From contig OZ220089.1 of assembly GCA_964291625.2 (NCBI GenBank), positions 2,176,001 to 2,240,000 on the forward strand: a DNA stretch of 64,000 nucleotides, in the 5' to 3' direction. The position numbers and the translations under genes were made by a program. The notes beneath the pieces were generated by a model, which saw only the letters and a list, made by a program, of their open reading frames with translations, did not search any database and was not told the DNA's origin. Shown here piece by piece: positions 20,191 to 59,409 of the stretch (within the stretch, counting starts at the first letter, position 1; the number at the start of each line of letters is the position of its first letter). The stretch is from Candidatus Latescibacterota bacterium. Its GTDB lineage: Bacteria; Latescibacterota; UBA2968; UBA8231.

Positions 20191-20309
20191 TGTCCGCGCG
20201 TGGACACTTCTGTATCGCCAGCGGCCATCCAGTCCGGCGGCCGATTTCGCTCAAAGCAGCACAAATGACTGTCGGAGAAAGAGTAACGCACCGTGGCGCG
20301 GTTGTTGCT
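20191..20309 (+). promoter_or_regulatory. Sigma-54 promoter plus upstream activator site for the permease array
   Basis: TGTCC-GCGCGT-GGACA-CTTC-TGTATCG at 20191; TGGCGC-GGTTG-TTGCT at 20294-20309. Confidence 0.75.
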
Positions 20310-20381
20310 AAAGGTGGGGTGAGGGCCATCCGCCGATCGGCCGGCCCCGAACGGAAACCAGGAAGAGGAAAGGGAAGGATC

Positions 20382-22739
20382 ATGCTGGCTCACTACCTGA
20401 CCACGGCCCTGCGACTCCTGTGGAGGGAGCGCGGCTACGCGGCGATCAACGTCTTCGGCCTCGCCATCGGCTTCTCCCTGTGCCTGCTGATCATCCAGTT
20501 CACCTCCCACCAGCTCGCCGTGGGAACCTACCACGAGAACGGGGACCGCATCTACCGGGTCCTGGGACCCGGGTGGCGCGGCTCAGCCTTCGGCACGAGT
20601 CTGCCGATCCACATGGGACCCGCCCTCGAGGACCAGCTGCCCCAGGTGGAGGAAGCGGTCCGCTTCCGAGGCAAGTGGCCGACGCAGCTCCGGCTCGCCG
20701 GCAAGGAGTCGCTCTCCGACTGGGTGCTGATGGCGGAGGACGGCGTCCTCCAGGTCTTCGGCTTCCCCCTGCTGCGGGGCGACCCGCAGACGGCCCTGGC
20801 GCGCCCCTACACCATGGTCCTCACCGAGCCCCTGGCCCGCCGCCTCTTCGGCGACGACGACCCCATGGGACAGGTGCTCCGCGTCGGCGAGGAGTACGAC
20901 TGCGAGGTCACCGGCATCGTCGCCGAGCCGCCCCCCAACTCGCTCCTCGAGTTCTCGGCGATCCTCTCCTTCGCCACCATGTACGAGGAGAACCGGGGCA
21001 TGATGGAGTCCCGGAGCGCCAAGGCCTTCATCACCTACGTGCAGCTGAGCCCCGGCGCCGACCTCGCCTCCATCGAAGCGAGACTGCCCGCCATGGCCGA
21101 GGAGCTCACCGGCCTGCCGGAGGAGGAGGGCGCCACCTACAAACTCCAGCCGGTGAAAGAAATCCGCTTCGACTCCGAGGTGTCCAACAGCCTCGGCCCC
21201 AGTGGCAACCCCCTCTACCTGGCGGTCTGCGCCGCCCTGGCGGCCGTGATCCTGGCCATCGCCAGCGTCAACTACGTGAACCTGGCCACCGCCCGGGCCG
21301 ACCGGCGGACCCACGAGATCGGCGTGCGCAAGTCCCTCGGCGCCCAGCGCGGACAGCTCATCCGCCAGCTCCTGTGCGAGTCGGTGGTGCTCAGCGCCGG
21401 GGCGACGCTCCTGGGCGCCGCGGCGACGCAGATCCTGGTCCGCCTCCCCGCCCTGATCACGGGAATGCCCATCGATCTGCCCTTCATGCGCTGGACGATC
21501 CCCGCCGCGGCGGGGGCCGCGGCCCTGGCCCTCGGAATCGGACTGGCGGCCGGCGCCTACCCGGCCTGGCTCGTGGCGCGCTTCCAGCCGGCGGCCGTGG
21601 TCCGCCGCCGCTCGGGCGGCGCCCGTCTGCGCCAGGTCCTGGTGGTGGGGCAGTTCACGGTCACCGCGGCGCTGATGACGATGACCCTCCTCATTTGGAG
21701 CCAGGTCGGTTACGTCCAGGACCTGCTCCGCCGCGAGTCCGCCCTCGGGTTCGAGCCGGAACAGGTGACGGTCGTCCGCAACCAGATGCTGACGCTGGAA
21801 CAGGCCCGGGTCCTCAAGTCCGAGCTGCTCCAGGACAGCCGGATCGCCCTGGTCAGCCTCTCCGAGACGTTGCCCGGCAACCTCAGCAGGACGTGGTACG
21901 GGGTGAAGGGGGAGGACGCGGGGGAGGTGGAGGTGAGGACCTACGGGGTGGACGGCGACTTCTTCGAGATGCTGGGCCTGCGCATGAGCCGGGGCCGAGC
22001 CCTCACCGATGATCCCTCCGACGACCGGGCGGCGGTGATCAACGAGACCGCCGTGCGCAGGATGGGGTGGGAGGATCCCCTGGGCAAGGCGATCACCGGC
22101 TACATGGGCCGGGACCTGCGCGTCGTGGGCGTCGTCGAGGACTTCCACTTCGACGGCCCCCACAAGAAGGTGGAGCCCCTGCTCATGGCTCCCGTCACCA
22201 ACGTCGGCCCCATCTCCGTGCGCGCCCGGCCCGGACACCTCGACGAGGTCAACGAGCTGATCGACGCGAAGTGGGCGGCCCTCTCCCCCCACCGGCCCAT
22301 CGAGCGCATGCCCCTGGAGGAGGTCTTCGCCGGCCTCTACATGGAGGAGCTGATGATGGGCAAGGCCCTGACGGTCTTCCTCTCCTTCGCCATCGCCGTG
22401 GCCCTGGTGGGGCTCTTCGGCATGGCCGCCCACGCCGCCCAGAAGCGCATCCGCGAGATCGGCGTGCGCAAGGTCTTCGGCGCCTCCGTCACCGGCCTCA
22501 CCGCCATGATGCTGCGCGACTTCGCCAAGCCCGTCGGCCTCGCCTTCGTCCTCAGCGTCCCCATCTCCTGGTGGCTCGGCGGCCTGTGGCTGCAGAACTA
22601 CACCTACCACGTGGAGGTCGGCGTCGGCCTGTACCTGACCTCGGGCGCCCTCTCCTTCCTGGTCGCCGGCCTGACCGTGGGACGCCAGGCGATCCGGGCT
22701 TCCATGACCAACCCGGTGGAAACGCTGCGCACCGAGTAG
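20382..22739 (+). CDS. MacB/FtsX-family duplicated ABC permease 1
   Basis: MLAHYLTTALR...INVFGLAIG, NYVNL, EIGVRK twice, VINET, GVVEDFHF, NPVETLRTE. Confidence 0.92.
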   Translation: MLAHYLTTALRLLWRERGYAAINVFGLAIGFSLCLLIIQFTSHQLAVGTYHENGDRIYRVLGPGWRGSAFGTSLPIHMGPALEDQLPQVEEAVRFRGKWPTQLRLAGKESLSDWVLMAEDGVLQVFGFPLLRGDPQTALARPYTMVLTEPLARRLFGDDDPMGQVLRVGEEYDCEVTGIVAEPPPNSLLEFSAILSFATMYEENRGMMESRSAKAFITYVQLSPGADLASIEARLPAMAEELTGLPEEEGATYKLQPVKEIRFDSEVSNSLGPSGNPLYLAVCAALAAVILAIASVNYVNLATARADRRTHEIGVRKSLGAQRGQLIRQLLCESVVLSAGATLLGAAATQILVRLPALITGMPIDLPFMRWTIPAAAGAAALALGIGLAAGAYPAWLVARFQPAAVVRRRSGGARLRQVLVVGQFTVTAALMTMTLLIWSQVGYVQDLLRRESALGFEPEQVTVVRNQMLTLEQARVLKSELLQDSRIALVSLSETLPGNLSRTWYGVKGEDAGEVEVRTYGVDGDFFEMLGLRMSRGRALTDDPSDDRAAVINETAVRRMGWEDPLGKAITGYMGRDLRVVGVVEDFHFDGPHKKVEPLLMAPVTNVGPISVRARPGHLDEVNELIDAKWAALSPHRPIERMPLEEVFAGLYMEELMMGKALTVFLSFAIAVALVGLFGMAAHAAQKRIREIGVRKVFGASVTGLTAMMLRDFAKPVGLAFVLSVPISWWLGGLWLQNYTYHVEVGVGLYLTSGALSFLVAGLTVGRQAIRASMTNPVETLRTE

Positions 22740-22767
22740 ACGCAGATCCCGCCACGAAAGGACAAGC

Positions 22768-25368
<2,601 letters not shown>

Positions 25369-25398
25369 ACGAGCGGATCCCGCCACGAAAGGACACGC

Positions 25399-28056
<2,658 letters not shown>

Positions 28057-28086
28057 ACGGGCGGATCCCGCCCCGAAAGGACGAGC

Positions 28087-30429
<2,343 letters not shown>

Positions 30430-30463
30430 CCTGGAACCAGATCATGCCAAGGAAGGGACCTGC

Positions 30464-32833
30464 ATGCTAGCCAACTATCTGACCACCGCCCTCCGCCACC
30501 TGTGGCGAGAGCGCGGCTACGCGGCGATCAACCTCTTCGGGCTGGCCCTTGGTTTGGCCCTGTGCCTGCTGGTCATCCAGTTGGCCGATTACCAGCTCTC
30601 CATGGGCGACTTCCACGAGAAGAAGGACCGGGTCTTCCGCATACTGAAGAAAAGAGAAGATCCGGGGCCCCTGGGTCACCGGATCTCTTCAAGTATGCCG
30701 CTACCTCTTGGGCCCACCCTCAAGGAGCAAGTGCCCGAAGTCGAGGAAACAGTCCGAATCACCGGGGGGCGGCCGCGTCTGCTCAGAGTCGGAGACAGGA
30801 GTGGGATCAATGTGGAGGCTATCTGGGCAGAATCCAGTGTCTTCGAAGTGTTCAGCTTGCCCCTCCTGCGCGGGGACCCCAAGACAGCTCTGTCGCGCCC
30901 TTACACCATGGTGCTGAGCGAACCACTCGCCCGTCGGCTCTTTGGAGAGAGCGACCCCATTGGCCAGATCGTCCGCTATGGCGAAGCCTTCGACTGCGAG
31001 GTCACCGGCATCGGCCAGGCGCCCTCCAACTCATTGCTCCAGTTCTCGGCACTGCTCTCCCTGGCCACTGTGCAGCACACGGAGAGGGAAGAGGATTTGG
31101 GCTGGCGAAGCTGGGCCTACCCGACCTTCGTGCAGCTGAACACCAATGCAGATGCCGCTACTGTCGCCGAGCGCATTTCAGGCATCGTTCAGGAAGCCTG
31201 GGGGTTGGCCGAAGCAACCGACTCCTACGCGCTGCAACCCTTGAAATCGATCTACTTCGACACGGAGTCTCCCAACGGCATCGGCCCGAGTGGCAACCCC
31301 ATGCACCTCGCTTTGTTCGCCACACTGGCCATGGTGCTCTTGATGATCGCCGGGTTCAACTACGTGAACCTGGCGACGGCGCGTGCCCAGGGACGGATAC
31401 ACGAAATCGGAGTCCGCAAGGCTCTCGGCGCCCATCGCGGCCAGATCATTCGCCAACTCCTGAGCGAGTCGGTACTGATGAGCGTCGGAGCCACGTTCCT
31501 TGGCGTTGCCATGGCAGAAGTCGTGACCCCGTTCCTGCCGGCGTTTGGAGGAATCGACTTTGAGTGGTCACTCCGCTGGACGGTTTCTACCTGCGCCGGG
31601 ACTGCGGCACTGGCGGTAGCGGTCGGACTGGCGGCGGGCGCCTACCCGGCATGGGTCGTGGCCCGCTTTCAGCCGGCGGTCCTGGAGCGCGGGGGACGCA
31701 TCGGAGGCGCGCGCCTGCGTCGCGGTCTGGTCGTGGCGCAGTTCACCGTTACTGCGACGTTGATGACGATGACCCTGCTGATATGGCACCAAGTCAGTTT
31801 CATCCAGAGCATGCTCCGCGAGAACTCCGTCCTGGGGTTGGACCCGGAGCAAGTTGTCATCGTCAAGAACCCCGGGAACGGCGGCCTGACCGCAGACCAA
31901 GCCCGGACTCTCAAAGCTGAATTGCTTCAAGACAGCCGTATCGCCGCCGTGAGTCTCTCCAAGGCAGTACCTGGTCACGCCTGGGTTGTGAAGAGTTGGG
32001 TCGGGGGTACGGAGACGGAGATAGTGAGGACCGAGTACGAGGTAGATAGCGATTTCGTTGAAGTCTTGGGATTACGCATGGTTCAGGGACGATTTCTGAC
32101 CAACGAGCCGGCCGATGCCACATCGGTCGTCATCAATGAGACCTTCATGCGCACGTTGGGCTTGGAAGAGCCTCTTGGAAACCCCCTGGGGCCCTGGGAT
32201 ACGGACGAGCGCGTCGTGGGAGTGATCGAGGACTTCCACTTCGAAGGTCCGCGCCACAAGGTTGCACCCCTGGTCCTGGCACAACTCGATGAAGGGGTGG
32301 CAGTCATTATCGTGCGGGTGCAATCCGGCCACCTCGCAGAAGCTCTCGAAGTGATTGACGACAAGTGGGCCGCCGCCGTTCCCTACCGCCCCATCCAGCG
32401 CCATTCCCTGGAAGAGGTCGTCGCCGAACTCCACTCCGACGAACAGAGGGTGGGACGCACACTCACCCTCCTTCTCTTTGCGGCCCTCGCCGTCGCCTTG
32501 GTAGGGCTCTTCGGTCTCGCTGCCCATGCCGCTCAAGCAAGAACCAGGGAGATCGGCATCCGCAAGGTGTTCGGTGCCTCCCCCGGCCGCGTCACCGCCA
32601 TGCTGCTGGGCGACTTCGCCAGACCCGTCGCCATCGCCTTCCTCCTCAGCGTGCCAGTCGCTTACGGGTTGGCCGACCACTGGCTGCAGGACTATGCCTA
32701 TCGCGTGGAAGTCGGCTTGGCCCTGTTCATGGTGTCGGGCGCACTGTCCTTCCTCATCGCCGGGCTGACGGTTGGCGGCCAGGCGATGCGAGCTGCCCTG
32801 ACCAGCCCCGCAAGGACCCTGCACACGAAATAG
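30464..32833 (+). CDS. MacB/FtsX-family duplicated ABC permease 5
   Basis: 789 aa, same architecture; visibly more A/T at third codon positions. Confidence 0.92.
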   Translation: MLANYLTTALRHLWRERGYAAINLFGLALGLALCLLVIQLADYQLSMGDFHEKKDRVFRILKKREDPGPLGHRISSSMPLPLGPTLKEQVPEVEETVRITGGRPRLLRVGDRSGINVEAIWAESSVFEVFSLPLLRGDPKTALSRPYTMVLSEPLARRLFGESDPIGQIVRYGEAFDCEVTGIGQAPSNSLLQFSALLSLATVQHTEREEDLGWRSWAYPTFVQLNTNADAATVAERISGIVQEAWGLAEATDSYALQPLKSIYFDTESPNGIGPSGNPMHLALFATLAMVLLMIAGFNYVNLATARAQGRIHEIGVRKALGAHRGQIIRQLLSESVLMSVGATFLGVAMAEVVTPFLPAFGGIDFEWSLRWTVSTCAGTAALAVAVGLAAGAYPAWVVARFQPAVLERGGRIGGARLRRGLVVAQFTVTATLMTMTLLIWHQVSFIQSMLRENSVLGLDPEQVVIVKNPGNGGLTADQARTLKAELLQDSRIAAVSLSKAVPGHAWVVKSWVGGTETEIVRTEYEVDSDFVEVLGLRMVQGRFLTNEPADATSVVINETFMRTLGLEEPLGNPLGPWDTDERVVGVIEDFHFEGPRHKVAPLVLAQLDEGVAVIIVRVQSGHLAEALEVIDDKWAAAVPYRPIQRHSLEEVVAELHSDEQRVGRTLTLLLFAALAVALVGLFGLAAHAAQARTREIGIRKVFGASPGRVTAMLLGDFARPVAIAFLLSVPVAYGLADHWLQDYAYRVEVGLALFMVSGALSFLIAGLTVGGQAMRAALTSPARTLHTK

Positions 32834-36300: not shown

Positions 36301-36305
36301 AGGCT

Positions 36306-47397: not shown

Positions 47398-47658
47398 CGT
47401 ATCTCGCAACGTATTGTGCCGCAATCGGTTATCACGCGACGGGACAATAAGATCAGACGACTGACTCTAACGGCTCGACACAGCCCAAGAGCCTATCCTG
47501 GCCGTTGAGGTGAAGAGGCAGGACCGCTATCACAACATCATACAGGGCCGCCGCGGAGCCGGGGGTGAGTTGTTGTGACCGAGGTGGCGTTCCCCTCAGC
47601 GCACTGACCGACCTCCGGCGCCCTCAAGCCAGGATCCCGCGCGCCCGCATCCCCCGGC

Positions 47659-47767
47659 TGTCCGCCAGCGGACAGCGATTGTAGCACCTGCGGACAGCCC
47701 CGCAGCGCCCTCCCTTTCCATAAGTCACGGCGGCTCAACCACTAACGACCGTGGCACGCAGGTTGCG
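47659..47767 (+). promoter_or_regulatory. Sigma-54 promoter plus upstream activator site for permease 12
   Basis: TGTCC-GCCAGC-GGACA at 47659 followed by TGTAG-N7-GGACA; TGGCAC-GCAGG-TTGCG at 47752-47767. Confidence 0.78.
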
Positions 47768-47822
47768 TTCCCCTTCGAGGCCGTCGTGAAGACACGACGC
47801 ACTCGAAGGGAGGACTGAGCCG

Positions 47823-50199
47823 ATGCTGCGCAACTACCTGGTGTGCGCCTGGCGCAATCTGTGGCGCTACCGGATGTATTCCGTCATCAACGTGGGCGGG
47901 CTGGCCGCGGCCTACGTGGTCACCATCATGGTGGGCCTGTTCCTGCACGGCGAGATGACCTGGGACCGCTTCCACGCCCGCGGCGAGCGGATCTACCAGG
48001 TCTACGTGATCTGGCGTCAGGCCGAGGACCGCCAGGCGCTGCGCAACTCCTACCGCTGGACGCCGGGGGCCCTGGGCGCCGAGATGGTGGCCACCGTCCC
48101 CGGGGTGCTGCGCTCGGTGCGCCTCGAGGAGGAGAAACAGGCCCTGCTGAGCTACGAGGACCGGGTCTTCGAGGAGCAGGGACTGCATGCCGATCCCGGG
48201 TTCTTCGAGCTCTTCACCTTCCCCCTGGTCGCCGGCGATCCGGCCACCGCCCTGACCGCGCCCGGATCGATCGTGGTCTCGACGCGGCTGGCGCGGCGGC
48301 TCTTCGGCGACCAGGAACCGATGGGCCGGACCGTCCAGCTCGGGTGGCGCGGGGACGGCGGGGACTTCGTCGTCACCGGGGTCGCCGACGACGTGCCCTA
48401 CGCGTCCAGCCTGCGCTTCGACTGGGTGATCCCCTTCGTCCACCACCTGGACCATATCGACCGGTCGTACGGGGAGGATGCCAGTCCCTGGGTCACGGCC
48501 GGCCAGACCTTCCTGGAGATAGCCGACGCCGAGGGCGTGGAGGCGGCCCGGGCCTTCGACCTCGACCGCTACATGGAGAAGGATGAGCAGGGCGACGATC
48601 TGGCCCTGGTTCCCCTCTTCGACAAGCGGCTGCACCAGGGCCTCAGCAGAGGCAGGATGACCCTGGTCTACGGCTACGCCTTCGTCGCTTTCCTGGTGCT
48701 CCTGCTGGCCTGCATCAACTTCGCCAACCTGGCGGCGGGCCTGTCGCTGACGAGGGCCCGGGAGGTCGGGGTGCGCAAGGTGATCGGCGCCGGCCGGGGA
48801 CAGGTCATGGGGCAGTACCTGGCAGAGGCCGTGCTGCTCAGCTTCGGGGCCCTGGCCCTGGCCGTGCCGCTCACCGAGAGCTTGCTGCCGGGCCTCAACC
48901 GCCTCGGGACCTGGGGCCAGGCCCTCCTGCAACTCGACATGCGCTATACGGCGGAAACGGCGGCGGCCCTGGCGGGCCTCGCCGTCGTCATGGGGCTCGT
49001 GGCCGGCGCCTACCCGGCCCTGGTGCAGTCGCGCATGCAGCCGTTGGACATTCTGCGGAATCGCCTCCAGGCGGGAACCCGGGCCGGCAGCGTTCTGGTG
49101 GTCCTGCAGTTCGCGGCCTCCACCGTCTTCCTCACGACGGCCCTGGTCGTGAGCAGGCAGGTCGACCACTGGACCTCCCTCGACCAGGGCTACGACCCGG
49201 GCTCGGTGGTGTGCCTTCCGACTCTCGCCCAATCGACGGCGGACGGCGTGCACCCGTCCCAACGCTTCCTCGAGATCTTCCGCCGCGAGGTTCGGCCCCT
49301 TCCGGGCGTCCTCGACGTGTCCGGCTCGACGGACTTCGTCTCGGGACATGGGAGCTTCCACCTCGAGGGCAAGGAGGGGCCCTGGATCGCCCAGATCGAG
49401 GTCGATCCCGGCTTCGTCCGCACCCTCGGCCTGGAGCTGATCGAGGGCGAGGACTTCCCGCCCGACGCGGTGGCCAGCGGCGGTCTGGCCCTCGTCAACC
49501 AGGGCCTGGCGGATCGCCTGGAGGGCCGGGCGATCGGTACCGAGCTGGTGGGCGAGCGCGGGCAGCAGCCGCGGATCATCGGCGTGGTCTCCAACTTCGA
49601 GCACAAGTCCTACATCCCGGCCTCCTACCCCACCCTGATCAGCGTGCGGCCCGACCGCCCCATCGAGACGGTGCTGGTGCGCCTGCGGGCCGGGGATCCG
49701 TCCCGCGCCCTCGCCGGCCTGCGCGAGGCCTGGGACCGGCTGGCGCCGGGGGCGCCCTTCAGCTACCGGTTTCTCGAAGACCATATCGCCGACCGCCACC
49801 GGCACAGGGGAGTCCTCGCCAGCCGCCTGCGCTGGCTGGCCGGGGTTCCTCGCCCTGATCTCCTGTCTCGGCGTCTTCGGCATGGCCTCCCTCGCGGTGA
49901 GCAAGCGCCGAAAGGAGGTCGGCATCCGCAAGGTCCACGGCGCCTCGGTGACGAGCGTGGTCGTGCTGCTGTCGTCCCGGTCCACGAGGCTGGTGCTGCT
50001 CGCCGTGGCCATCGGCCTGCCCCTCGCCTACCAGCTCTCGGAGCGCTTTCTCGCGGAGGAGGTGAACCGCATCGACCTCGACCTGCTCAGCTACCTGGCG
50101 GGCGGCTTCATCGCCCTCGGCCTGACCTGGCTGGTGTCGGGGTACCACGCCCTGCGCGCGGCCCTCATGAACCCGGTGCACTCGCTGAGCGACGAGTAG
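47823..50199 (+). CDS. MacB/FtsX-family permease 12, apparent +1 frameshift at ~49842-49845
   Basis: Permease motifs in ORF 47823 up to ~49840; C-terminal ISCLGVFGMASL...EVGIRK...NPVHSLSDE lies in another frame; removing one G from GGGG restores the frame. Confidence 0.82.
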
Positions 50200-50209
50200 G
50201 AGAAGATCC

Positions 50210-50788
50210 GTGATCGAAGTGATCGAGGACATCGCCCTGCACTGGCACGGTCTCACCGCCGTTTCCACTCTGTTCATTGCGGGCGGCACGACCGTCTCCG
50301 CCATCCTGACGCGGGCTCTCATCAGGGAGAACCGGCTGCTCAGGAAGGCGGACTCGGAGCCGAGGGTTGTCGCCTACTTGGCCAACCTCTCGAATGTCGG
50401 CCGCGGCGCCGCCCGGAACGTGAGCTTCCGGTTTCTCACCAGCGAAGCCGATTTCGAGAGCCATGGAGTCAGTGTGAGCAACACCCCCGACCGGCGACCC
50501 CTCGGCTTCCTTCCCCAGGGAGAGACGTATGCCGTGCTCTTCGGGGCGGTCGATCGCCTGCTCGGGAAACCGCGGCTTCGGCCCTTCCATGTCGCGGTCT
50601 CCTACCAGGACCTGGACGGCAAGCCACGTTCAGAGAAGTTCCTGCTGGATGCAGGACAGTTCGAAGGGTTCCGCAGCCTCGGAGCGCCGCCCGAGCAGGA
50701 GATGGCGGAATCCCTGAAGAAGATCGCGGGCCACCTCGCCCAGGCTAGCCCCGGCGGTCAGGGGTCTGCCGCTCCAGCCGGTGGCTGA
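50210..50788 (+). CDS. Hypothetical protein with N-terminal membrane anchor
   Basis: 192 aa, AGGAG RBS, hydrophobic segment at residues ~15-35; directly follows permease 12. Confidence 0.65.
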   Translation: MIEVIEDIALHWHGLTAVSTLFIAGGTTVSAILTRALIRENRLLRKADSEPRVVAYLANLSNVGRGAARNVSFRFLTSEADFESHGVSVSNTPDRRPLGFLPQGETYAVLFGAVDRLLGKPRLRPFHVAVSYQDLDGKPRSEKFLLDAGQFEGFRSLGAPPEQEMAESLKKIAGHLAQASPGGQGSAAPAGG

Positions 50789-50795
50789 CCTGCCT

Positions 50796-52010
50796 TCAGA
50801 AGGGCCGCCACCTCGGCGACCGTTCCTCCCGGTCGGGGGTGTTGGTGAGATTGACCGGCATGACCGGGCGCTCCTCGACGTGGTCCCAGTCGAAGCCGAC
50901 CGCGGAGACGATGAAGATGTCGAAGGCGCCCTGCGGGGTGTACTTGCCGGTCCTGTTGCTGAAGTGCACGTCCAGGGTGCCGTCCTCCCGGAAGTTCATC
51001 TTCCCCTGGTAGGCCAGGGCCCGGCCGTCCGGTGACCAGACCGGGTCCTGCTCGAAGGTGTGCTTGGCCACCGTGACGCGCACCTGCCTGCCGCTCTCGA
51101 CATCGGCCAGCATCAGTTCCTCGCCTCCGAACCGTTCGGAGTTGAAGGCCAGCCGGCTGCCCTCGGGAGACCAGGCCGCGTGCCAGTCGTAGTGGGAGTC
51201 GTGGGTGAGGCGGCGCAGGTTGGAGCCATCGGCGTCGACGAGGTAGATCTCGTCATTGCCGTCGTACTGGCTGGAGGTGAAGGCGATGTGGTCTCCGTCC
51301 GGAGACCACGCCGGCTCCCGGCCCAGCACCAGCTTGCGCTTGTTGCCGCCGTCGGAGTCCATGAGCCAGATCGCCACGTCGCCGTCGCGATGGCTGTGGA
51401 AGGCGATGGTGCCGCCGTCGGGGGACCAGGCCGGCTGGTCGTCCCGCTCGGGGTGCTCGGTGAGCCGCCGCTCGGCGCCGCCGTCCGCCGCCATCACGTA
51501 GATGTCGATGTTGGTTGTCACGTGGCCGCGGGCGAAGGCGATCTCCCTGCCGTCGGGGGACCACGCGGGGTACTGCTCGAACTCGGGAGTGTCGGTGAGG
51601 CGGGTGGGTTCGCCGCCGGCAGCGGGCATGGTGTAGAGGTCCCAGTCCCGCACGGCGACCGGCGTGGCGGCGTAGAGGATGGTTCCCCGGGGCTGATAGC
51701 CGCCGTTGTGACCGCCGGGGATGGTGATCGTCAACCCGTAGCTGCGAACGCCGGCGACGGACGCCGGCTCCACCTTCAACTCGCGGCTCATCACCTGTTG
51801 GCTGGTCACGACGTTGATGGCGTAGGCCCCCTCCCTGACATCCCCGAAGGAGACGGACCCCGCGTCGACGAGGCGGTTGAATCCGGGCCGGACCTCACCC
51901 GCGTCCAGCCGGACCTTGTTCCCGTCGCCGCCCTCGATTCGAATCGTCACTTCGTTGCCGCCGCACGAAACGACTGCCAGCAGCGACAGCATGGTCGCGC
52001 GCAACCTCAT
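50796..52010 (-). CDS. TolB-like PD40-repeat beta-propeller protein, predicted lipoprotein
   Basis: Repeated P.WSPDG..IAF units; MRLRATMLSLLAVVSC lipobox-like; AGGAGG RBS. Confidence 0.85.
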   Translation of the reverse strand: MRLRATMLSLLAVVSCGGNEVTIRIEGGDGNKVRLDAGEVRPGFNRLVDAGSVSFGDVREGAYAINVVTSQQVMSRELKVEPASVAGVRSYGLTITIPGGHNGGYQPRGTILYAATPVAVRDWDLYTMPAAGGEPTRLTDTPEFEQYPAWSPDGREIAFARGHVTTNIDIYVMAADGGAERRLTEHPERDDQPAWSPDGGTIAFHSHRDGDVAIWLMDSDGGNKRKLVLGREPAWSPDGDHIAFTSSQYDGNDEIYLVDADGSNLRRLTHDSHYDWHAAWSPEGSRLAFNSERFGGEELMLADVESGRQVRVTVAKHTFEQDPVWSPDGRALAYQGKMNFREDGTLDVHFSNRTGKYTPQGAFDIFIVSAVGFDWDHVEERPVMPVNLTNTPDREERSPRWRPF

Positions 52011-52140
52011 GGCCCCTCCTTGAACCGTGTCCACACTCCTCTCCGAGCTAGGCGCGATCGTGGACATAGTCAAGCCAGCCGGCGAACCCAGGGTCCGCGG
52101 GGCCGGAGGACGGACCGGAGCCAGCGGTCTTTGCGCGAGG

Positions 52141-52509
52141 TCAGGCCGGGCCCAGGGCCTTTTCCACCACCCGGAGGATCTGCTCGTTCGTCCAGGGCTT
52201 GATGACGAAGTCAGCGGCCCCGGCCCGGAGGCCCTGCGCCGCCAGTTCGTTGGACCCCCACGACGCCATCAGGACGACGGGCACCTGCGGCCGCCGGCCC
52301 TTGATCGCCTTCAGCAGCTCCAGGCCCTCCTCGCCGCTGGCCCAGCGGGAGAAGTGCATGTCCTGCAGGACCAGCTCCCAGTCGCCGTGCTCCAGCCGCT
52401 GCAGGGCCTCGGCCGGAGAGGCGGCGGCGGCCGAGCGGTATCCGGCCTTCTTGAGCAACAGGGCCAGGCTCGTGGTCACCATGGGATCGTCGTCGACAAC
52501 CAGGATCAT
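52141..52509 (-). CDS. Stand-alone response regulator receiver domain
   Basis: MILVVDDD, LQD (phospho-Asp), GLELL, ADFVIKPW; stop directly after the REC domain. Confidence 0.85.
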   Translation of the reverse strand: MILVVDDDPMVTTSLALLLKKAGYRSAAAASPAEALQRLEHGDWELVLQDMHFSRWASGEEGLELLKAIKGRRPQVPVVLMASWGSNELAAQGLRAGAADFVIKPWTNEQILRVVEKALGPA

Positions 52510-52558: not shown

Positions 52559-52677
52559 AGCAACAGCCGCGCCACGAGGCGTTACTCCTTGTCCCACCGG
52601 TAGTTGCGGCATCATCGGAGGCTTCCGGCACGGCGCGCGGTGGTCGCCTGCGATACAGAAGTGTCCATCCGTGGACA
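52559..52677 (-). promoter_or_regulatory. Sigma-54 promoter plus upstream activator site for the receiver-only gene
   Basis: Minus strand TGTCC-ACGGAT-GGACA-CTTC-TGTATCG from 52677; TGGCGC-GGCTG-TTGCT at 52574-52559; closely matches the promoter at 20191-20309. Confidence 0.78.
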
Positions 52678-53164: not shown

Positions 53165-53199
53165 CAAGGGCCGCTCTTCGGAGCGGCCCTTGCTCTTTT
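53165..53199 (+). terminator. Intrinsic terminator hairpin (copy 1)
   Basis: CAAGGGCCGCTC-TTCG-GAGCGGCCCTTG, perfect 12 bp stem followed by CTCTTTT. Confidence 0.8.
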
Positions 53200-53575
53200 C
53201 AGGGTCCCCTGCCCAGGACCAGCTCCATGCTCTCACGGGACATCAGATCGGTCTCGGCGCCCGGCTCGAGGAAGGGGCCGACGTCGGCCTTCAGGCGATC
53301 CCAGTCCACGGTGCCCAGCCGGCCGCGGACGATCCGGCGCCAGGTGTGTTGTGCCGGACGCTCCTCCTCCCATCCGCTCTGCTGCAGCGCCTTGTCGAGC
53401 AGGACGAGGTTGGGCTCCGGCCAGTCGGGATCGCTCAGGTACCAGAGCAGGTCGTAGAAGTCGCGGCCCTTGGGCCAGGGCCGGTGCAGCACGGCGTGCA
53501 GCTTGCCCGCCAACAGCGAAGCCCGGTCGTGGTGCTGCAGCCGAAGGGTGACGTGGCGGCCGACGAGCCCTTCAC
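53199..53575 (-). pseudogene. AbiEii-family nucleotidyltransferase toxin, N-terminal half deleted
   Basis: GTG start overlapping the antitoxin stop (GTGA) is joined out of frame to LVGRHVTLRLQHHDRASLLAGKLHAVL...KGRDFYDLLWYL; N-terminal GGT NTase motif absent. Confidence 0.75.
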
Positions 53576-54213
53576 AGCGTCTCGTACTCCTGCGCTTCGG
53601 CCTCGATCAGGGAGACCACGCTCCGGGCCGCGCGCATCAGCTTCGGGCTGCCGGAGCGCGCGGCCAGCCGCATCAGCTCGGCTGCATCGAGGAGGTCGAG
53701 ATTCCGCAGGCGCAACCCGTGCAGGTAGGGCAATCCGTCGCCCCCGGGTTGCAGGTGGACCAGGTCCAGCAGGGCCTTCTCCGGACTGGCCACGAAGACC
53801 TGCTGGCCATCTCCCACGTCGGCCGCCCGGTAGCCGTAGAGAAGGGCGGGGCCGAGATGGCGGAACTCGCACCGGCCCAGGGGGGTGTCCCAGCGGTTGG
53901 GCCTTCCGGTGCAGACGCTGGTGACCACCGGGCTGAACTCCGGGATCAGGTGGTGGTGGGTCAGGGCCGCCTGGCAACTCACGTAGGAACCGCTCACCAG
54001 GCGATTGGCTACCAGGAAGGGATGAGGTCTCGACTTCTGAAAAGGCGGTGCCAGGGCGTAGAGTCCCCGGCGCAGCTGGTAGAGGTGCCCGGCCCGGGTC
54101 CAGCGCGACAACTGGCGCCGCACGTCCGCCGGATCGACGGCGCCGGAGAGGAGCAAACCCGTCTCAAAGACCGGTTCCTCCCCGACGATCTCGAGCAATT
54201 GGGGGAATTTCAT
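53572..54213 (-). CDS. AbiEi-family type IV TA antitoxin / transcriptional regulator
   Basis: QLSRW...L.QLRRGLY, SYVS...AL..H.LIPE, VTSV, ASPEKALLD motifs. Confidence 0.85.
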   Translation of the reverse strand: MKFPQLLEIVGEEPVFETGLLLSGAVDPADVRRQLSRWTRAGHLYQLRRGLYALAPPFQKSRPHPFLVANRLVSGSYVSCQAALTHHHLIPEFSPVVTSVCTGRPNRWDTPLGRCEFRHLGPALLYGYRAADVGDGQQVFVASPEKALLDLVHLQPGGDGLPYLHGLRLRNLDLLDAAELMRLAARSGSPKLMRAARSVVSLIEAEAQEYETL

Positions 54214-54252: not shown

Positions 54253-55611
54253 TCAGAACCGCAGGGAGAACACCGTCTGCACCCCCGGTTCCGACCGCGC
54301 CGAGATCGTGCCCCGGTGCAGGCGCATGATCTGCCGGCACAGGCTCAGACCGATGCCCGAGCCTTCCTGCTTGGTGGTGAAGAAGGGGATGAAGATCCGG
54401 TCCAGGGCCTCCTCGACGATGCCGGGTCCGTTGTCGGCGACGTCGATGACGACGCGGTCGCGATCCATGGAGGCCGTCAGCTCCACCCGCGCCCCGTCAC
54501 GGCCCCCGGCGGCGTCGCAGGCGTTGCGCAGCAGGTTGATGAGCACCTGCTCCACCTGCCCGGGGTCGGCGGTCACCTCCAGGGACGCCGGCTCGACGGC
54601 GTGGACGAGCTCCACCCCCGCCTCCTGGAACTGGTGGCCCATGAGCTGGGTCACGCGCTCGAAGAGGCCGCTCACCGGGGTGATCTGGAAGTCGGGGGCC
54701 GGCACGCGCGTGAGGTCTCGGTAGGCGTCGACGAACTGCAGCAGGCCCTGCGAGCGGCGGTGGATGGTGTGCACGGCGGTGCGCACGTCGTTCACGTCCT
54801 CCCCGGCGACGGTCTCCTGCTGCAGCAAGCCCTCGGCCGTGGCGGACAGGGAGGCGATCGGCGTGATCGAGTTCATGATCTCGTGGGTGAGCACCCGGAT
54901 CAGCCGCTGCCAGGCCTCCATCTCCTGTTCCTCCAGCTCGGACTGGATGTCGTGGAGCGAGACGAGGCGGTGCTCCTCCTCTCCCGTGCGGAAGAGGGCG
55001 GCGAAGCAGGCCAGCTGGCGGACCTCCCCGTCCTCCTCCAGGCGCAGCAGGGCTTTGCGGCGCGGGCCCAGGGTGGTCAGGGTCTCCACCAGGCCGGGGC
55101 CCCGCGACTCGAGGTCGGAGACGTTGGCGAGGCGGTTGACCCGGAGCAGACGCTTGGCGGCGTTGTTGATCAGCGACACCTCGCCCTGCCGGTCGAAGGC
55201 GACGAGGCCGACGCCGATGTGCTGCACCACCATCTGCAGGTAGAGGCCCTGCTCCTCCTTCTCGGCGCGGGTCGCGCGGAAGGCGTCGAGGACCTCGTTG
55301 AAGGACCGCTTCAACTCGTCGAAGGAGGACCCGAGGCCGCCGGTGACGTAGGTCTGGGAGAAGTCGGCGTAGCGGACGGCCTGGAGAAAGCGCGCCAGGT
55401 CGCGGTTGGTGCGGTCCACGAAGCGGATCAGCGACCACACCTGGAAGGCCGCCAGCACCCCGATGACCAGGGGGATCGCCGGGTAGTCGAGGTTCCGCAG
55501 CGACAGCGGGAGCAGCATCAGGGAGAGGCCCAGGAGCAGGACGCGCATCACCACCTGGGCGCGGAAGTTGGCGAACACCGATCGTCGCCGCCGCGGCCGA
55601 TCAGAGGCCAT
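54253..55611 (-). CDS. Sensor histidine kinase (NtrY-like: 2 TM, PAS-like, HATPase)
   Basis: AWQRLIRVLTHEIMNS, QVLINLLRNA, DNGPG, IFIPFFTTK, GSGIGL; start 55611 or GTG 55578. Confidence 0.9.
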   Translation of the reverse strand: MASDRPRRRRSVFANFRAQVVMRVLLLGLSLMLLPLSLRNLDYPAIPLVIGVLAAFQVWSLIRFVDRTNRDLARFLQAVRYADFSQTYVTGGLGSSFDELKRSFNEVLDAFRATRAEKEEQGLYLQMVVQHIGVGLVAFDRQGEVSLINNAAKRLLRVNRLANVSDLESRGPGLVETLTTLGPRRKALLRLEEDGEVRQLACFAALFRTGEEEHRLVSLHDIQSELEEQEMEAWQRLIRVLTHEIMNSITPIASLSATAEGLLQQETVAGEDVNDVRTAVHTIHRRSQGLLQFVDAYRDLTRVPAPDFQITPVSGLFERVTQLMGHQFQEAGVELVHAVEPASLEVTADPGQVEQVLINLLRNACDAAGGRDGARVELTASMDRDRVVIDVADNGPGIVEEALDRIFIPFFTTKQEGSGIGLSLCRQIMRLHRGTISARSEPGVQTVFSLRF

Positions 55612-56986
55612 ACTTCTCCATCCTCCGGTAGAGGGAGGTGCGCGTGAGGCCCAGCTCGCGGGCGGCGTGGCTGACGTTGCCCTGGTGCTTGCGCAGGACG
55701 CGCTCGATGACCACCCGCTCCACGTCCTCGAGGTTGTAGCTGTCGAAGGTCTCCGCCTCCCCCGCGGGGGCCGGTCCGGGCGCGGTGAGCAAAAAGTCGT
55801 CGGCCTCGAGGCGGGGGCCCTCGGCCATGATGACGGCGCGCTCCACGGCGTGCTGCAGCTCGCGCACGTTCCCCGGCCAGGCGTAGGCGCGCAGCTTCTC
55901 CAGGGCGCCGCCGGAGAGGCCGCGCCCGGGGCGGCCGTACTTCTTCCCGTACTGGTCGAGGTAGTGGTCCACCAGGGCCTCGATGTCGCCGGGGCGCTCG
56001 CGCAGGGGCGGGATGCGCACCTCGATGGTGTTGATGCGGTAGAGCAGGTCCTGGCGGAAGCCGCCCTCGCCGACCATGTCGTACACCGGCATGTTGGTGG
56101 CGCACAAGAGGCGCACGTCGATGGGGACCGGCTTGTTCGAGCCGACGCGCACCACCTCCCGGCTCTGCAGGCAGGTGAGCAGCTTGGCCTGCAGCGGCAA
56201 CGGCAGGTTGCCGATCTCGTCGAGGAACAGGGTGCCGCCCGAGGCGACCTCGAAGCGGCCGGCGCGGTCGGAGCGGGCATCGGTGAAGGCGCCCTTCACG
56301 TGGCCGAAGAGCTCGCTGTCGAAGAGGCTCTCGGAGACGGCGCCCATGTCGACGGAGATGAAGACCTCGCCGGCGCGCGCCGAGCGGCGGTGGATCTCCC
56401 GGGCCACCAGCTCCTTGCCGGAGCCGTTCTCGCCGAGGATGAGGACGTTGGCGTCGGTGGCCGACACCTTGGCGATGGTGTCGAAGATCTCGCGCATGGG
56501 GGGCGAGTCGCCGATGATGTCGACGAAGGGCTGGTCGAGGTCGGCGGCCAACTGGTCCTGGCGCGAGCGCAGGCCCCGGGCCTCTGACCGCGAGCTGCGC
56601 AGTTGCGCCGCCGCCGACAGGGTGGCCAGCAGCTTCTCGTTCTGCCACGGCTTGAGGACGAAGTCCACCGCCCCCTCGCGGACGGCGCGCACCGCCATCT
56701 CCACGTCGCCGTACGCGGTGATGGGGATGACCACGGACTCGGGGTCGAGCTCGTGGATCTGCTGCAGCCAGTAGAACCCCTCGCGGCCCGAGGCCGCGTC
56801 CTGGGTGTAGTTCATGTCCAGGAGCACGATGTCGGGCGGGTCGTCGCGCAGTACCGCGGGGATGGCGTGGGGATCGGCCTCGGTGCGGACCTGGTAGCCC
56901 TCCTGCTTGAGCAGCAGCCGGGCGGCGACGAGGACGTCCGGATCGTCGTCGACGATCAGGACCCTGGGCTCGGCGGCGGGCTTCAT
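55601..56986 (-). CDS. Sigma-54-dependent NtrC-family response regulator (REC-AAA+-Fis HTH)
   Basis: VLIVDDD, GENGSGKE, SELFGH.KGAFTDA, LFLDEIG, FRQDLLYRIN, WPGNVREL, C-terminal HTH; GGGAGG RBS. Confidence 0.95.
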   Translation of the reverse strand: MKPAAEPRVLIVDDDPDVLVAARLLLKQEGYQVRTEADPHAIPAVLRDDPPDIVLLDMNYTQDAASGREGFYWLQQIHELDPESVVIPITAYGDVEMAVRAVREGAVDFVLKPWQNEKLLATLSAAAQLRSSRSEARGLRSRQDQLAADLDQPFVDIIGDSPPMREIFDTIAKVSATDANVLILGENGSGKELVAREIHRRSARAGEVFISVDMGAVSESLFDSELFGHVKGAFTDARSDRAGRFEVASGGTLFLDEIGNLPLPLQAKLLTCLQSREVVRVGSNKPVPIDVRLLCATNMPVYDMVGEGGFRQDLLYRINTIEVRIPPLRERPGDIEALVDHYLDQYGKKYGRPGRGLSGGALEKLRAYAWPGNVRELQHAVERAVIMAEGPRLEADDFLLTAPGPAPAGEAETFDSYNLEDVERVVIERVLRKHQGNVSHAARELGLTRTSLYRRMEKYGL

Positions 56987-56999: not shown

Positions 57000-57120
57000 T
57001 GTACGCCAACGGACACCGCGTGTATCGCCGGCGTGCACCTCCGTCTCTCGGGCGGTTCGGGCCAAAAGTGCTCATCTTGTTGCGCTCCAGTATCTTGGGG
57101 GAAATGGCATGCATCTTGCG
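57000..57120 (+). promoter_or_regulatory. Sigma-54 promoter plus upstream activator site for the MFP-ATPase operon
   Basis: TGTAC-GCCAAC-GGACA-CCGCG-TGTATCG at 57000; TGGCAT-GCATC-TTGCG at 57105-57120. Confidence 0.8.
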
Positions 57121-57163: not shown

Positions 57164-58510
57164 ATGCCCACAACCGTTGAAATACCCCTCGCTTCGGCCC
57201 TCGTGGAAGGCGGCACCGCCGAAGGCAGCCCCGGCAGCGGCGCGTCGATGGACAGGAAGATAAGCAGGCGGAGGTGGCCCCCGCGCAGGATCGCCGGGGC
57301 CGCCGGCGCCGGGCTCTTCGCCGTCTTCGCCGCCTGGGGCCTCCTCAAGGACAGCGGCGTGCGCAAGCTCAACGTCGACCGCGACCGGCTGACGATCTCC
57401 GAGGTCGTCCACGGCCCCTTTCAGGAGTACACCCCCGTGCGCGGCACCGTGCTGCCCATCCGCACCGTCTACCTCGACGCCCTCGAGAGCGGCCAGGTGC
57501 AGCGCCTCTTCGTCGAGGAAGGGACCAACGTGAAGGAGGGCGACCCGCTCCTGCGCCTGGCCAACCCCGAGCTCGAGCTGCACGTGCTGCGGCAGGAGTC
57601 CGAGCTGCAGCGCAAGATCGAGGACCTGCGCAACGGCCGCCTGACCATGGAGCAGAACCTGCTCAGCTCCCGGCAGCGACTGATGGAGATCGAGTACCAG
57701 GCGCAGATCGACCGCCGCAACTTCGAGCGCTACAGCTCCCTGTCGCGCGAGGATCTGGCGGCGATCATGCCCCTCCAGGACTACGAGAAGCTGCGCGACA
57801 ACTACGAGTTCCAGGCCCGCAAGCTCGCCCTCACCCGCGAGACCCACCGCCAGGACTCGCTGCTGGCCGTGGACCGGGTGGTGCAGGCCCGGGCGGCGGT
57901 GGAGCGCATGGAGCGCAACCTGGAGATCATCCGCCGGCGCCTCGACGACCTCACGGTGCGCGCCCCGGTCTCCGGGCAGCTCACCGCCCTCGCCGCCGAG
58001 ATCGGCGAGAGCAAGGGGTCGGGCACCCGCCTGGGCAAGATCGACATCGTCGACGGCTTCAAGGTGAGGGCCGCCATCGACGAGCACTACATCGCCCGCG
58101 TCGACCGCGGCCAGCGCGGCCAGTTCGACCACGACGGCACCCCCCTCGGCCTCGTGATCCGCAAGGTCTACCCGGAGGTCGAGGAGGGCCGCTTCGAGGT
58201 CGACCTCGTCTTCGAGGGCGACGCGCCGGAGGGCATCCGCCGCGGCCAGACCCTGCAGATCCGCCTGGAGCTGGGCGATCTCGAGGAGGCCATGCAGGTC
58301 GCCCGGGGCGGCTTCTACCAGGCCACCGGCGGCCACTGGGCCTACGTGCTGCAGCCGGCGGGGGACCGCGCCCTGAAACGGGACATCCGCCTCGGCCGCC
58401 AGAACCCCAAGGTCTACGAGGTGCTGGAGGGACTGCAGCCCGGGGAGCGCGTCATCACCTCCGGCTACGAGAGCTTCGGCGAGGACATGGACGTCCTCGT
58501 CCTCAAGTGA
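57164..58510 (+). CDS. Periplasmic adaptor / membrane-fusion protein (MacA/HlyD family)
   Basis: MDRKI.. then TM helix, GQVQRLFVEEG..VK.GD.L..L lipoyl half-motif, coiled coil, VRAPVSG, EVLEGLQPGERVI; start 57164 or 57248. Confidence 0.9.
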   Translation: MPTTVEIPLASALVEGGTAEGSPGSGASMDRKISRRRWPPRRIAGAAGAGLFAVFAAWGLLKDSGVRKLNVDRDRLTISEVVHGPFQEYTPVRGTVLPIRTVYLDALESGQVQRLFVEEGTNVKEGDPLLRLANPELELHVLRQESELQRKIEDLRNGRLTMEQNLLSSRQRLMEIEYQAQIDRRNFERYSSLSREDLAAIMPLQDYEKLRDNYEFQARKLALTRETHRQDSLLAVDRVVQARAAVERMERNLEIIRRRLDDLTVRAPVSGQLTALAAEIGESKGSGTRLGKIDIVDGFKVRAAIDEHYIARVDRGQRGQFDHDGTPLGLVIRKVYPEVEEGRFEVDLVFEGDAPEGIRRGQTLQIRLELGDLEEAMQVARGGFYQATGGHWAYVLQPAGDRALKRDIRLGRQNPKVYEVLEGLQPGERVITSGYESFGEDMDVLVLK

Positions 58511-58548
58511 CCCACGGAACCAGAACCCATACAGAGGGAGAAGAGACG

Positions 58549-59277
58549 ATGACGGACGAAAACAGCAACGGCAACGGCAGGGAGTCGCTGATCCGGACCC
58601 AGGGACTGCGCAAGCTCTTCACCACCGAGGAGGTGGAGACCACGGCCCTGGACAACGTCAACATCGAGATCCACGAGGGCGAGTTCGTGGCCATCATGGG
58701 TCCCTCGGGATGCGGCAAGTCGACGCTGCTGAACCTCCTCGGCCTGCTCGACAACCCGACGGACGGGGAGTACTGGCTGTGCGGGGAGGAGGTGGCCTCG
58801 TACTCCGAGCGCAACCGCGCCAACCTGCGCAAGGGGACGATCGGCTTCGTCTTCCAGAGCTTCAACCTCATCGACGAGCTCACCGTGTACGAGAACGTGG
58901 AACTGCCCCTGCTCTACCTGGGCCTGCCCGCCGGGGAGCGGCGGCAACGCGTCGCCGAGGCCCTCGACCAGGTGCAGATCGCCCACCGGGAGAAGCACTT
59001 CCCGCAGCAGCTCTCCGGCGGCCAGCAGCAGCGGGTGGCCGTGGCCCGCGCCGTCGTCGCCAAACCCCGGCTGATCCTCGCCGACGAGCCCACGGGCAAC
59101 CTCGACTCCCGCCACGGCGACGAGGTGATGGCCATGCTCACGGAGCTGAACGAGTCCGACACGACCATCGTCATGGTCACCCACTCGCCGGCCTACGCCG
59201 ACCACGCCCACCGGATCATCCACCTCTTCGACGGCCGCGTGGTGACCGAGAACATCATCCAGGAACGGGGGCTCTGA
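58549..59277 (+). CDS. ABC ATP-binding protein (MacB/LolD family)
   Basis: [41 protein letters not shown]. Confidence 0.95.
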
Positions 59278-59375
59278 GCCGAGAGGGCGTTGCGGCGACC
59301 GGGCCGGCCATGACTTGCCGGCCCCGGGATCGCCCGTAGATTCCTCCCGCACCCGGCGGCAGCGTGCTGTCGCCT

Positions 59376-59409
59376 CAAGGGCCGCTCTTCGGAGTGGCCC
59401 TTGCTTTTT
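59376..59409 (+). terminator. Intrinsic terminator hairpin (copy 2)
   Basis: CAAGGGCCGCTC-TTCG-GAGTGGCCCTTG-CTTTTT downstream of the ATPase. Confidence 0.85.

Follow-up and report, generated by a model that had tools for sequence, protein, structure and literature searches.

Permeases of the ADOP kind are about 800 amino acids (aa) long, carry two MacB periplasmic domains and two FtsX modules, and occur in large tandem families with few or no ATPase genes alongside. They are orphans in that no ATP-binding cassette (ABC) ATPase gene is fused or adjacent to them. In Bacteroidota, Acidobacteriota, Gemmatimonadota and their relatives, few unexplained transporter layouts are as common as arrays that combine double MacB-type permeases with a very small number of ATPases; to our knowledge, no member has a known substrate. 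The ADOP cluster of Psychroflexus is reportedly to be credited to Ward et al. 2009. In Psychroflexus torquis, ten ADOP paralogs lie among other transporter genes in a 42-kb cluster and are highly translated; the passages on this cluster in the 2014 article assign no function to it (PMC3914696). Literature searches on ADOP, MacB and FtsX permease arrays returned no functional study. An array of this kind is described here from the uncultured marine Candidatus Latescibacterota bacterium of assembly GCA_964291625.2. The whole stretch analysed, the window, comprises 64,000 nucleotides (nt) of contig OZ220089.1 (G000:C1:2176001-2240000); the host genome, G000, is 5.9 Mb in two contigs, with a G + C content of about 70%. 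An initial annotation of the window had put the array forward as an uncharacterised system, which holds for the function but not for the layout, already published, as far as the cluster is described there, for Psychroflexus (PMC3914696). The locus as a whole is probably a rearranged, slightly decayed copy of a conserved sigma-54-dependent multi-permease operon of the type VII (MacB/FtsX-superfamily) ABC class. The general picture of such systems is left unchanged; the layout itself is known, and a regulatory signature and a gain/loss series are added here.

The array extends over 20382–50199 and consists of 11 full-length double permease genes of about 800 aa, all on the plus strand. Nine are intact; P10 and P11 are frameshifted. 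Subfamily A comprises P1 (20382–22739, 785 aa; two MacB_PCD and two FtsX domains), P2 (22768–25368, 866 aa), P3 (25399–28056, 885 aa), P4 (28087–30429, 780 aa), P5 (30464–32833, 789 aa) and P6 (32863–35235, 790 aa), which are 55–78% identical. P7 (37570–40035, 821 aa) and P10 (44921–47397) form a lineage with 75% identity between the two. P8 (40046–42487, 813 aa), P9 (42494–44920, 808 aa) and P11 (47823–50199) each represent a lineage of their own, about 26–34% identical to everything else. At least five permease lineages are present, about 30% identical to one another. Spacers measure 28–34 nt within P1–P6 and 0–10 nt within P7–P10. P10 is read in two frames, 44921–45670 and 45559–47397, with the frameshift near 45551. 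The frameshift of P11 lies at a GGGG run (49842–49845), and its last FtsX module is found in the other frame at 49639–50199; relatives have a single continuous frame across this site. At approximately 35321–35973 (+) lies what is left of a further subfamily-A permease, a decayed 5′ portion. It is 64.6% identical to P6 over 664 columns (blastn), matches residues 30–109 of P2, P3, P5 and P6 at 33–42% (tblastn), and is broken by multiple frames and stops. With this twelfth copy, the initial count of 12 same-strand permease genes or remnants is exact. Outside the array, at 18966–19061 (+, 96 nt), lies a fragment of the TM2–TM3 (transmembrane helices 2 and 3) region of a subfamily-A permease, with 75% identity over 32 aa to residues 302–333 of P1 (tblastn) and 84% over 135 nt to P1 (blastn); an equivalent fragment occurs in the related genome G006. 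P2 and P3 differ in possessing low-complexity inserts of 85–105 aa in the first periplasmic domain, just before TM2 (approximately 23500–23800 and 26130–26500); that of P2 is rich in His, and that of P3 repeats a unit of about 45 aa in tandem.

Among 21 plus-strand open reading frames (ORFs) scanned between 19947 and 60697, 11 contain MacB_PCD and FtsX (Pfam), and PF12704 and PF02687 score above their cut-offs in 11/11 permeases. Both domains are doubled in 8/11 genes. The two periplasmic domains of P10 are divided over its two frames, the second one of P9 is missed by the whole-genome scan, and P11 shows one FtsX stretch with Pfam, its out-of-frame C-terminal module being recovered by a custom hidden Markov model (HMM). 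Eight transmembrane (TM) helices and two large periplasmic domains are predicted per permease from hydropathy. The window holds 21 of the 35 MacB_PCD matches of the genome. A whole-genome search with an HMM built from the 11 proteins gives 11 ORFs as full-length matches, all in the window; double permeases are thus confined to this locus.

TIGR03434 is the best NCBIfam match for 11/11 genes. The scores are 201.5–283.5 bits (259.9 for P1), against a cut-off of 622.3, so that the genes are not members by NCBI's own threshold; the profile search bore out the MacB_PCD/FtsX assignment in full but not membership of this family. The permeases are nevertheless clearly of the ADOP kind. They differ from ADOP proteins in not being orphans in this clade: in relatives an ATPase and an adaptor are encoded in the same operon, and here a truncated and an intact ATPase gene are present. 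At least 2347 homologs are found at E ≤ 1e-20, one source name seen being 'FtsX-like permease family protein'. With 18 candidates scored per genome, TIGR03434 matches at E ≤ 1e-20 occur in 39/41 related genomes, above the cut-off in 0/41; the same search reveals large arrays in another genus of the same class.

The adaptor is a membrane fusion protein (MFP) of 448 aa (57164–58510, +), or of 420 aa from an alternative ATG at 57248. It scores 119.8 bits to TIGR01730 RND_mfp (cut-off 94.9) and 46.6 bits to HlyD_3, and has one TM helix and a long helical segment. ATPase1 (58549–59277, +, 242 aa, MacB/LolD-type; ABC_tran 121.9 bits) is the sole intact ATPase of the locus and is 98–100% identical in the genomes G002, G004 and G006. 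ATPase2 is truncated at its 5′ end (36306–36713, +). It keeps the signature motif, Walker B and the H-loop, and lacks Walker A; only positions 65–136 of PF00005 are matched, at 36303–36545. The stub 36306–36701 corresponds to residues 103–234 of ATPase1 with 59% identity (tblastn), has a G + C content at third codon positions (GC3) of 0.98 versus 0.55 in the upstream part of the same ORF, and evolves with a ratio of nonsynonymous to synonymous substitutions (dN/dS) of 0.19 relative to G006. The MFP and ATPase1 are encoded outside the permease operon, 7 kb downstream and beyond five minus-strand genes; that operon begins with them in more distant relatives. One MFP, one intact and one truncated ATPase had been annotated initially, without TolC in the window, and this inventory stands: none of the 21 OEP domain matches of the genome falls within the window (0/21).

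MacAB-TolC shares with the locus the FtsX + MacB_PCD fold family, an adaptor of the RND_mfp/HlyD kind and a LolD/MacB-type ATPase, and MacB chains are the closest solved relatives of P4 (phmmer, E 1e-14, FtsX part only). It differs in that the ATPase here is separate, the permease is an internally duplicated single chain and not a homodimer, eleven alternatives exist per adaptor, and no TolC gene is present in the locus, the 21 OEP domain matches lying elsewhere in the genome. Against a cut-off of 966 for NF007826, ATPase1 scores 228 bits (nucleotide-binding domain part) and the permeases 27–45 bits. DarBCD, consisting of a double permease of about 777 aa, an adaptor and a separate ATPase, has the same three-part make-up; among named models, DarC gives the MFP its highest score (152 bits) and DarD gives ATPase1 its highest (262.6 bits). 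The cut-offs of NF038008, NF038010 and NF038007 are, however, 700, 450 and 375, against 36–69, 152 and 262.6 bits here; DarBCD has one permease, and peptide-maturation genes were not seen among the window ORFs scanned. A second multi-permease locus of this genome (G000:C1:4164868-4174555) has one MacB-type ATPase, its own sigma-54 activator and six half-size FtsX/MacB_PCD permeases alternating between N-type and C-type, probably three heterodimer pairs. One ATPase gene beside several permeases therefore recurs in this organism.

The survey of relatives covers 21 loci around P7 orthologs and six genome regions, annotated with the window proteins; the named relatives are metagenome-assembled genomes, submitted under the names Candidatus Latescibacterota, Gemmatimonadaceae or Gemmatimonadetes. 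A recurrent layout is found: kinase-activator (−) / MFP-ATPase1-[A-type x0–3]-ATPase2-[P11-type]-(CBM9-like)-[P7/P10-type x1–2]-[further permeases]. The flank reaches the MFP-ATPase1-permeases-ATPase2-permeases layout in 9/21 loci, and contains ATPase1 upstream in 11/21 and the MFP in 10/21. ATPase2 is full-length in 14/21 loci, cut by the locus edge in 2/21, internally truncated in 2/21 (L028, L032) and out of reach on short contigs in 3/21. G006, an independent genome of the same genus, keeps the gene order of the window between the epimerase and GNAT genes and has 11 permeases; the array is genuine. Its ATPase2 is intact (221 aa, Walker A present) where the window has the 3′ part only. Since ATPase2 is intact there and in 14/21 loci, the single intact ATPase represents a loss in G000 and not a design; the 'one motor' of the initial annotation is correct as a count of intact ATPases here and fails as a principle of construction. 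In L028 the last 43 aa of ATPase2 remain (L028:7470-7598), between ATPase1 and a P11-type gene, and this truncation is taken to be independent of that in the window; L032 has an ATPase2 without its C-terminus. G007 has four permeases and ATPase2, with the MFP-ATPase1-activator-kinase module about 3 Mb away. G002 has only P7 and P10 behind the CBM9-like gene, on a contig that starts inside ATPase2. The number of permeases ranges from 2 to 11 among related genomes, and ATPase2 may be intact, truncated or relocated; this natural series bears on motor sharing.

An alternative would be a heterodimeric motor, in which the asymmetric double permease would bind one ATPase1 and one ATPase2, the pair would serve all permeases, and G000 would use ATPase1 homodimers or be impaired. 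Such a motor would suit the adjacency of the two ATPase genes in G011, L034 and L028 (ATPase2 as a remnant in the last), their co-occurrence in most related loci, and the difference in coupling loops between the N- and C-halves of each permease. It is distinctly improbable given that at least two independent truncations of ATPase2 exist (one here, one in L028) and that the genes lie about 3 Mb apart in G007; both ATPases, where full-length, keep Walker A, signature, Walker B and H-loop as these motifs are generally known, with no degenerate site.

Sigma-54 control of the array is likely, as initially annotated: conserved −24/−12 elements and a common palindrome precede P1, P11, the MFP gene and a receiver gene. 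The palindrome TGTCC-N6-GGACA, a candidate activator site, is exact at 20191–20206 (+), 87 nt upstream of the −24 element of P1; the sigma-54-type element itself (20294–20309, +) has one mismatch to TGGCAC-N5-TTGCW and lies 72 nt upstream of P1. Element and palindrome pairing are identical and at equal distance in G006 and G007. The P11 promoter has an exact palindrome at 47659–47674 (+), 77 nt upstream of the −24 element, and an element with one mismatch at 47752–47767 (+), 55 nt upstream of the gene. The receiver gene has an element with one mismatch at 52559–52574 (−), found likewise in G002 and G004, and an exact palindrome at 52662–52677 (−), 87 nt upstream of it. About 20 bases flanking the P1 and receiver palindromes are identical, at identical spacing. 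Between activator and MFP genes, the palindrome has one mismatch (TGTAC-N6-GGACA, 57000–57015, +) and is situated 89 nt upstream of the −24 element of the MFP promoter (57105–57120, +, two mismatches). A TGGCAY-N5-TTGC element is present in 10/10 other activator/MFP intergenic regions examined, and palindrome and element stand 87–89 nt apart at the MFP promoter in nine other genomes or loci. Pairing at 87–89 nt is conserved in G002, G004, G006, G007, G011, G019, L021, L023, L028 and L034.

With up to one mismatch, TGGCAC-N5-TTGCW occurs four times in the window versus 1.14 expected, three of these in non-coding DNA before P1, P11 and the receiver gene. The exact palindrome occurs three times versus 0.11 expected; genome-wide there are seven copies, 4/7 of them at 74–87 nt from a sigma-54-like element. 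At two mismatches, the sigma-54 consensus occurs 20 times in the window versus 20.5 expected, uninformative by count alone, and the palindrome 18 times versus 36 expected. A scan of 34900–51000 for terminators and sigma-70 promoters gave nothing convincing. The fixed spacing of palindrome and sigma-54 promoter is a defined regulon signature that could be used to find the inducing signal. A fourth palindrome copy at C1:1137170 (−), with a second, imperfect copy beside it, stands 74 nt upstream of a sigma-54 element that matches the consensus perfectly and precedes a 70-aa ORF; the site is possibly a further member of the same regulon.

The NtrC/kinase pair annotated beside the array is present. 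The activator (55601–56986, −, 461 aa) is of NtrC type, with Response_reg (75.6 bits), Sigma54_activat (213.8 bits) and HTH_8 (60.9 bits) domains, and is 93–99% identical within the genus. Its activator loop reads GAFTDA; the motif of sigma-54 activators is GAFTGA. The genome encodes 19 strong sigma-54 activators and rpoN, whose DNA-binding domain gives 209 bits at C1:598675. An NtrC-type sigma-54 two-component system is thereby represented at the sequence level by an activator with receiver, AAA+ and Fis-type helix-turn-helix domains, GG-N10-GC elements with upstream sites, and rpoN. In the histidine kinase (54253–55611, −), a loop of about 9 aa connects two TM helices, and PAS, HisKA and HATPase_c domains follow; hydropathy indicates no periplasmic domain. 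The kinase is 95–98% identical in G002, G004 and G006. The kinase-activator pair always adjoins the MFP-ATPase operon in relatives, and it is inferred from adjacency that the activator binds the TGTCC-N6-GGACA palindromes.

In BceAB-BceRS, genes for a type VII ABC transporter adjoin those of a two-component system, the kinase of which has no extracellular sensor domain. The kinase here is similar in lacking a periplasmic domain and in being encoded beside type VII ABC genes; the system differs in its sigma-54 activator (OmpR-type in BceRS), in the PAS domain of the kinase and in permease architecture. As the kinase itself lacks a periplasmic domain, the permeases might be mainly its ligand-sensing partners, in the manner of BceAB-BceS, with transport secondary or absent. 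This is very unlikely: contact between kinase and permeases is postulated by analogy, the cytoplasmic PAS domain could sense by itself, and the long helical segment of the adaptor speaks for a pump, although the TM helices of the kinase are only about 9 residues apart, its pair with the activator always accompanies the MFP-ATPase operon, and YbbP, a solved double permease, is described, where its fold is compared, as having a topology in common with the BceAB family (PMC12646458). A combined sense-and-pump panel is likewise a long shot. Unable to probe the envelope itself for want of a periplasmic domain, the kinase would read the working state of a substrate-engaged permease (Bce-type flux sensing) and drive the regulon through activator and palindromes; each lineage would both detect and export a separate class of envelope-active compounds encountered in a sponge or marine community, with one or two ATPases and one adaptor common to all.

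Divergence among the permeases is uneven. Within subfamily A the periplasmic domains are 58–59% identical versus 67–89% for TM and cytoplasmic parts; between lineages the values are 27–30% versus 35–42% for the other parts. The cytoplasmic coupling loops are the most conserved between lineages (46–49% versus 31% overall). In P1–P6 gene ends and spacers are homogenised, with a mean DNA identity of 87% over the first 150 nt and 98% for P2–P3. The 3′ ends, spacers and first 150 nt of P2–P6 are near-identical (up to 98%), versus 44–77% in the interiors; the near-identical blocks are located at 22640–22920, 25270–25550, 27960–28240, 30330–30620 and 32730–33010. The closest paralog pair shifts along the gene. 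This mosaic suggests unequal crossing-over or gene conversion among P1–P6.

The copies are old. In a FastTree phylogeny of 89 permeases, drawn up against relatives, 7/11 paralogs pair one-to-one with a G006 gene (91% identity for P1) and no G000-specific clade is formed, which argues against a recent burst; relatives of the P11 type were left out of this tree, and only shallow ortholog pairs are used, its deep between-lineage joins being unreliable. P7 has orthologs of 92–96% identity in four related genomes. The nonsynonymous-to-synonymous ratio omega on the G000 branch is 0.13–0.32 for P1, P7, P10 and the CBM9-like gene, and no relaxation of selection after the loss of ATPase2 is seen on these four branches. 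Together with the low dN/dS of the stub, this means that the losses are recent or that the permeases still matter.

The proposed working of such a locus is as follows. The kinase-activator pair would bind the palindromes and jointly induce P11, the receiver/PD40 pair, the MFP-ATPase1 operon and the long operon running from P1 to P10. Each permease, as a single chain, would stand in for a dimer of the MacB or LolCE type and engage, through two coupling helices, two molecules of one common ATPase; the shared ATPase would be ATPase1 alone here, and ATPase1 and/or ATPase2 in relatives. At least some permeases would associate with the single adaptor and with an outer-membrane duct whose gene lies elsewhere. 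Differing periplasmic domains would let alternative permeases extract or expel different envelope-located substrates, and the state with a single intact ATPase would be a loss here, repeated independently in relatives, and not the ancestral design. Sharing of ATPase1 and use of the single adaptor by permeases that differ in substrate is what analogy with related transporters would predict, and the greater periplasmic divergence fits permeases that may act as interchangeable specificity modules. Every other MacB_PCD locus in the genome except C1:269040 has an ABC domain beside or fused to it, and the genome-wide search for cognate ATPases elsewhere found no spare MacB-type ATPase without its own permease and none unpaired that resembles ATPase1. 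The nine intact permeases must therefore share ATPase1 or be idle.

Several points weigh against this explanation. Periplasmic domains of envelope proteins usually diverge faster, and different substrates are not proven by their divergence. The motif conserved in the coupling loops occurs throughout the FtsX superfamily and so does not demonstrate sharing of this particular ATPase. Binding of ATPase1 or the MFP by any permease is inferred from sequence only, and the palindrome-binding activator is assigned from adjacency among 19 candidates. In relatives, a separate permease block follows each ATPase gene, an order compatible with shared and with dedicated motors alike. The two permeases with frameshifts both belong to the group of five that follows the truncated ATPase2, so that the second half of the array may be dying and not borrowing ATPase1. 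Cover at the truncation junction (35236–36306) is near zero, and an assembly fault there is accordingly possible.

If motors are dedicated, ATPase1 and the MFP would serve subfamily A only, ATPase2 would serve P11, P7/P10, P8 and P9, and the second half would be a dead module in this genome. The gene order of relatives, MFP-ATPase1-[A-type]-ATPase2-[P11, CBM9, P7/P10 ...], suits this arrangement, as do the truncation of ATPase2 here and the distribution of frameshifts (2/5 behind ATPase2 versus 0/6 in subfamily A); but P7, P8 and P9 are intact, and selection is not relaxed on the G000 branch, omega being 0.13 for P7 and 0.18 for the C-terminal part of P10, as low as in G002. In L028, moreover, the 43-aa remnant of ATPase2 adjoins full P11-type and full P10-type genes. 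Contigs of RNA library X3 (sponge metagenome) match parts of P7–P11 with 2–19 differences over 329–670 nt; they point only weakly to transcription in a close relative, since carry-over of DNA is possible, and count slightly against a dead second half. Dedicated motors are judged unlikely. Contigs of two sponge-metagenome runs also match parts of the array, with 2–32 differences over 196–670 nt.

The loss postulated in the preferred reading, a decayed copy of a shared-motor operon, depends on the assembly. The ATPase2 truncation and both frameshifts could in part be consensus errors, the real locus having two ATPases and 11 intact permeases; this is unlikely. Logan contigs of run X1 are identical to the window over eight stretches of 485–2670 nt each and match it at both frameshift sites, one of them (47552–49891) crossing the site in P11; X1 is, however, possibly the source sample, so that its agreement is not independent. 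The shift in P11 lies within a GGGG run, as expected of an error, whereas the lesion in P10 is a 7-nt gap and no homopolymer slip: an X4 contig, which derives from a related strain, carries seven extra bases at 45551 that are absent from the window and from X1 contigs. The bin 35511–36021 is nearly uncovered in all four runs, and the only contig at 35378–35472, from X1, departs from the window by five small indels, both of which would suit an error; the remnant upstream of the stub is nonetheless genuinely decayed, with 65% identity to P6. Applied to the remnant, the five indels give a longer permease-like frame and still no intact gene.

The CBM9-like gene reported inside the array encodes a secreted CBM9-fold protein of 285 aa with a signal peptide (36710–37567, +; CBM9_1 35.8 bits). 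Its ATG overlaps the ATPase2 stop, and P7 begins 3 nt past the stop of the CBM9-like gene. The AlphaFold2 model has a mean predicted local distance difference test (pLDDT) score of 78; the best Foldseek match is CBM9 1i82 (E 2e-10), followed by DOMON-like haem subunits. The family is small, with 41 proteins, of which three (P0024, P0025, P0027) are fused to redoxin/AhpC/thioredoxin-like domains; these fusions hint at a redox-linked role. The gene stands immediately 5′ of a P7/P10-type gene in 9/21 related loci. In YbbAP-TesA of E. coli (PDB 9GE6–9GE8), two YbbA bind one pseudosymmetric double YbbP, and, in the account given of this complex, the periplasmic partner is encoded adjacent (PMC12646458). 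Translational coupling of the CBM9-fold gene to P7 recalls this arrangement; YbbP differs in having 10 TM helices versus 8 predicted here, no TesA-like gene is present, and phmmer does not list YbbP among the solved relatives of P4. That the CBM9-fold protein might be a permease partner is, from the gene adjacency, only an idea. As a conserved secreted neighbour, it is a third testable addition, beside the regulon signature and the natural series.

The remaining genes lie at the 3′ end of the array and around it. The ORF at 50210–50788 (+, 192 aa) has one hydrophobic segment, is 79–87% identical in G002 and G004 and is coding-like (GC3 0.80), with no Pfam or NCBIfam match. Rfam gives 0 matches in the window. 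The receiver gene (52141–52509, −) encodes a stand-alone response regulator (Response_reg 79.6 bits, no output domain), its start being placed at the Met preceding the domain; downstream of it, a PD40 (TolB-like) beta-propeller (50796–52073, −; PD40 117 bits) is conserved in G004 and G006. A Beta-lactamase-family (serine hydrolase-like) protein is encoded directly 3′ of ATPase1 (59315–60697, +; Beta-lactamase2 54 bits), and this adjacency is kept only in G002, G004 and G006. An AbiEi-like antitoxin gene between the receiver and kinase genes (53572–54213, −) scores 39.6 bits to NF047376, below the cut-off; it is kept in G002 and G004 and missing at the equivalent place in G006. It is followed by a coding-like ORF of 104 aa (53199–53513, −) with no family match, possibly the remnant of a toxin partner. 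The flanks of the array (1994–3469, 17438–18943, 61195–63163) encode a PhyH-HEAT protein, a sulfatase, a second PhyH dioxygenase and a BNR/sialidase-like protein.

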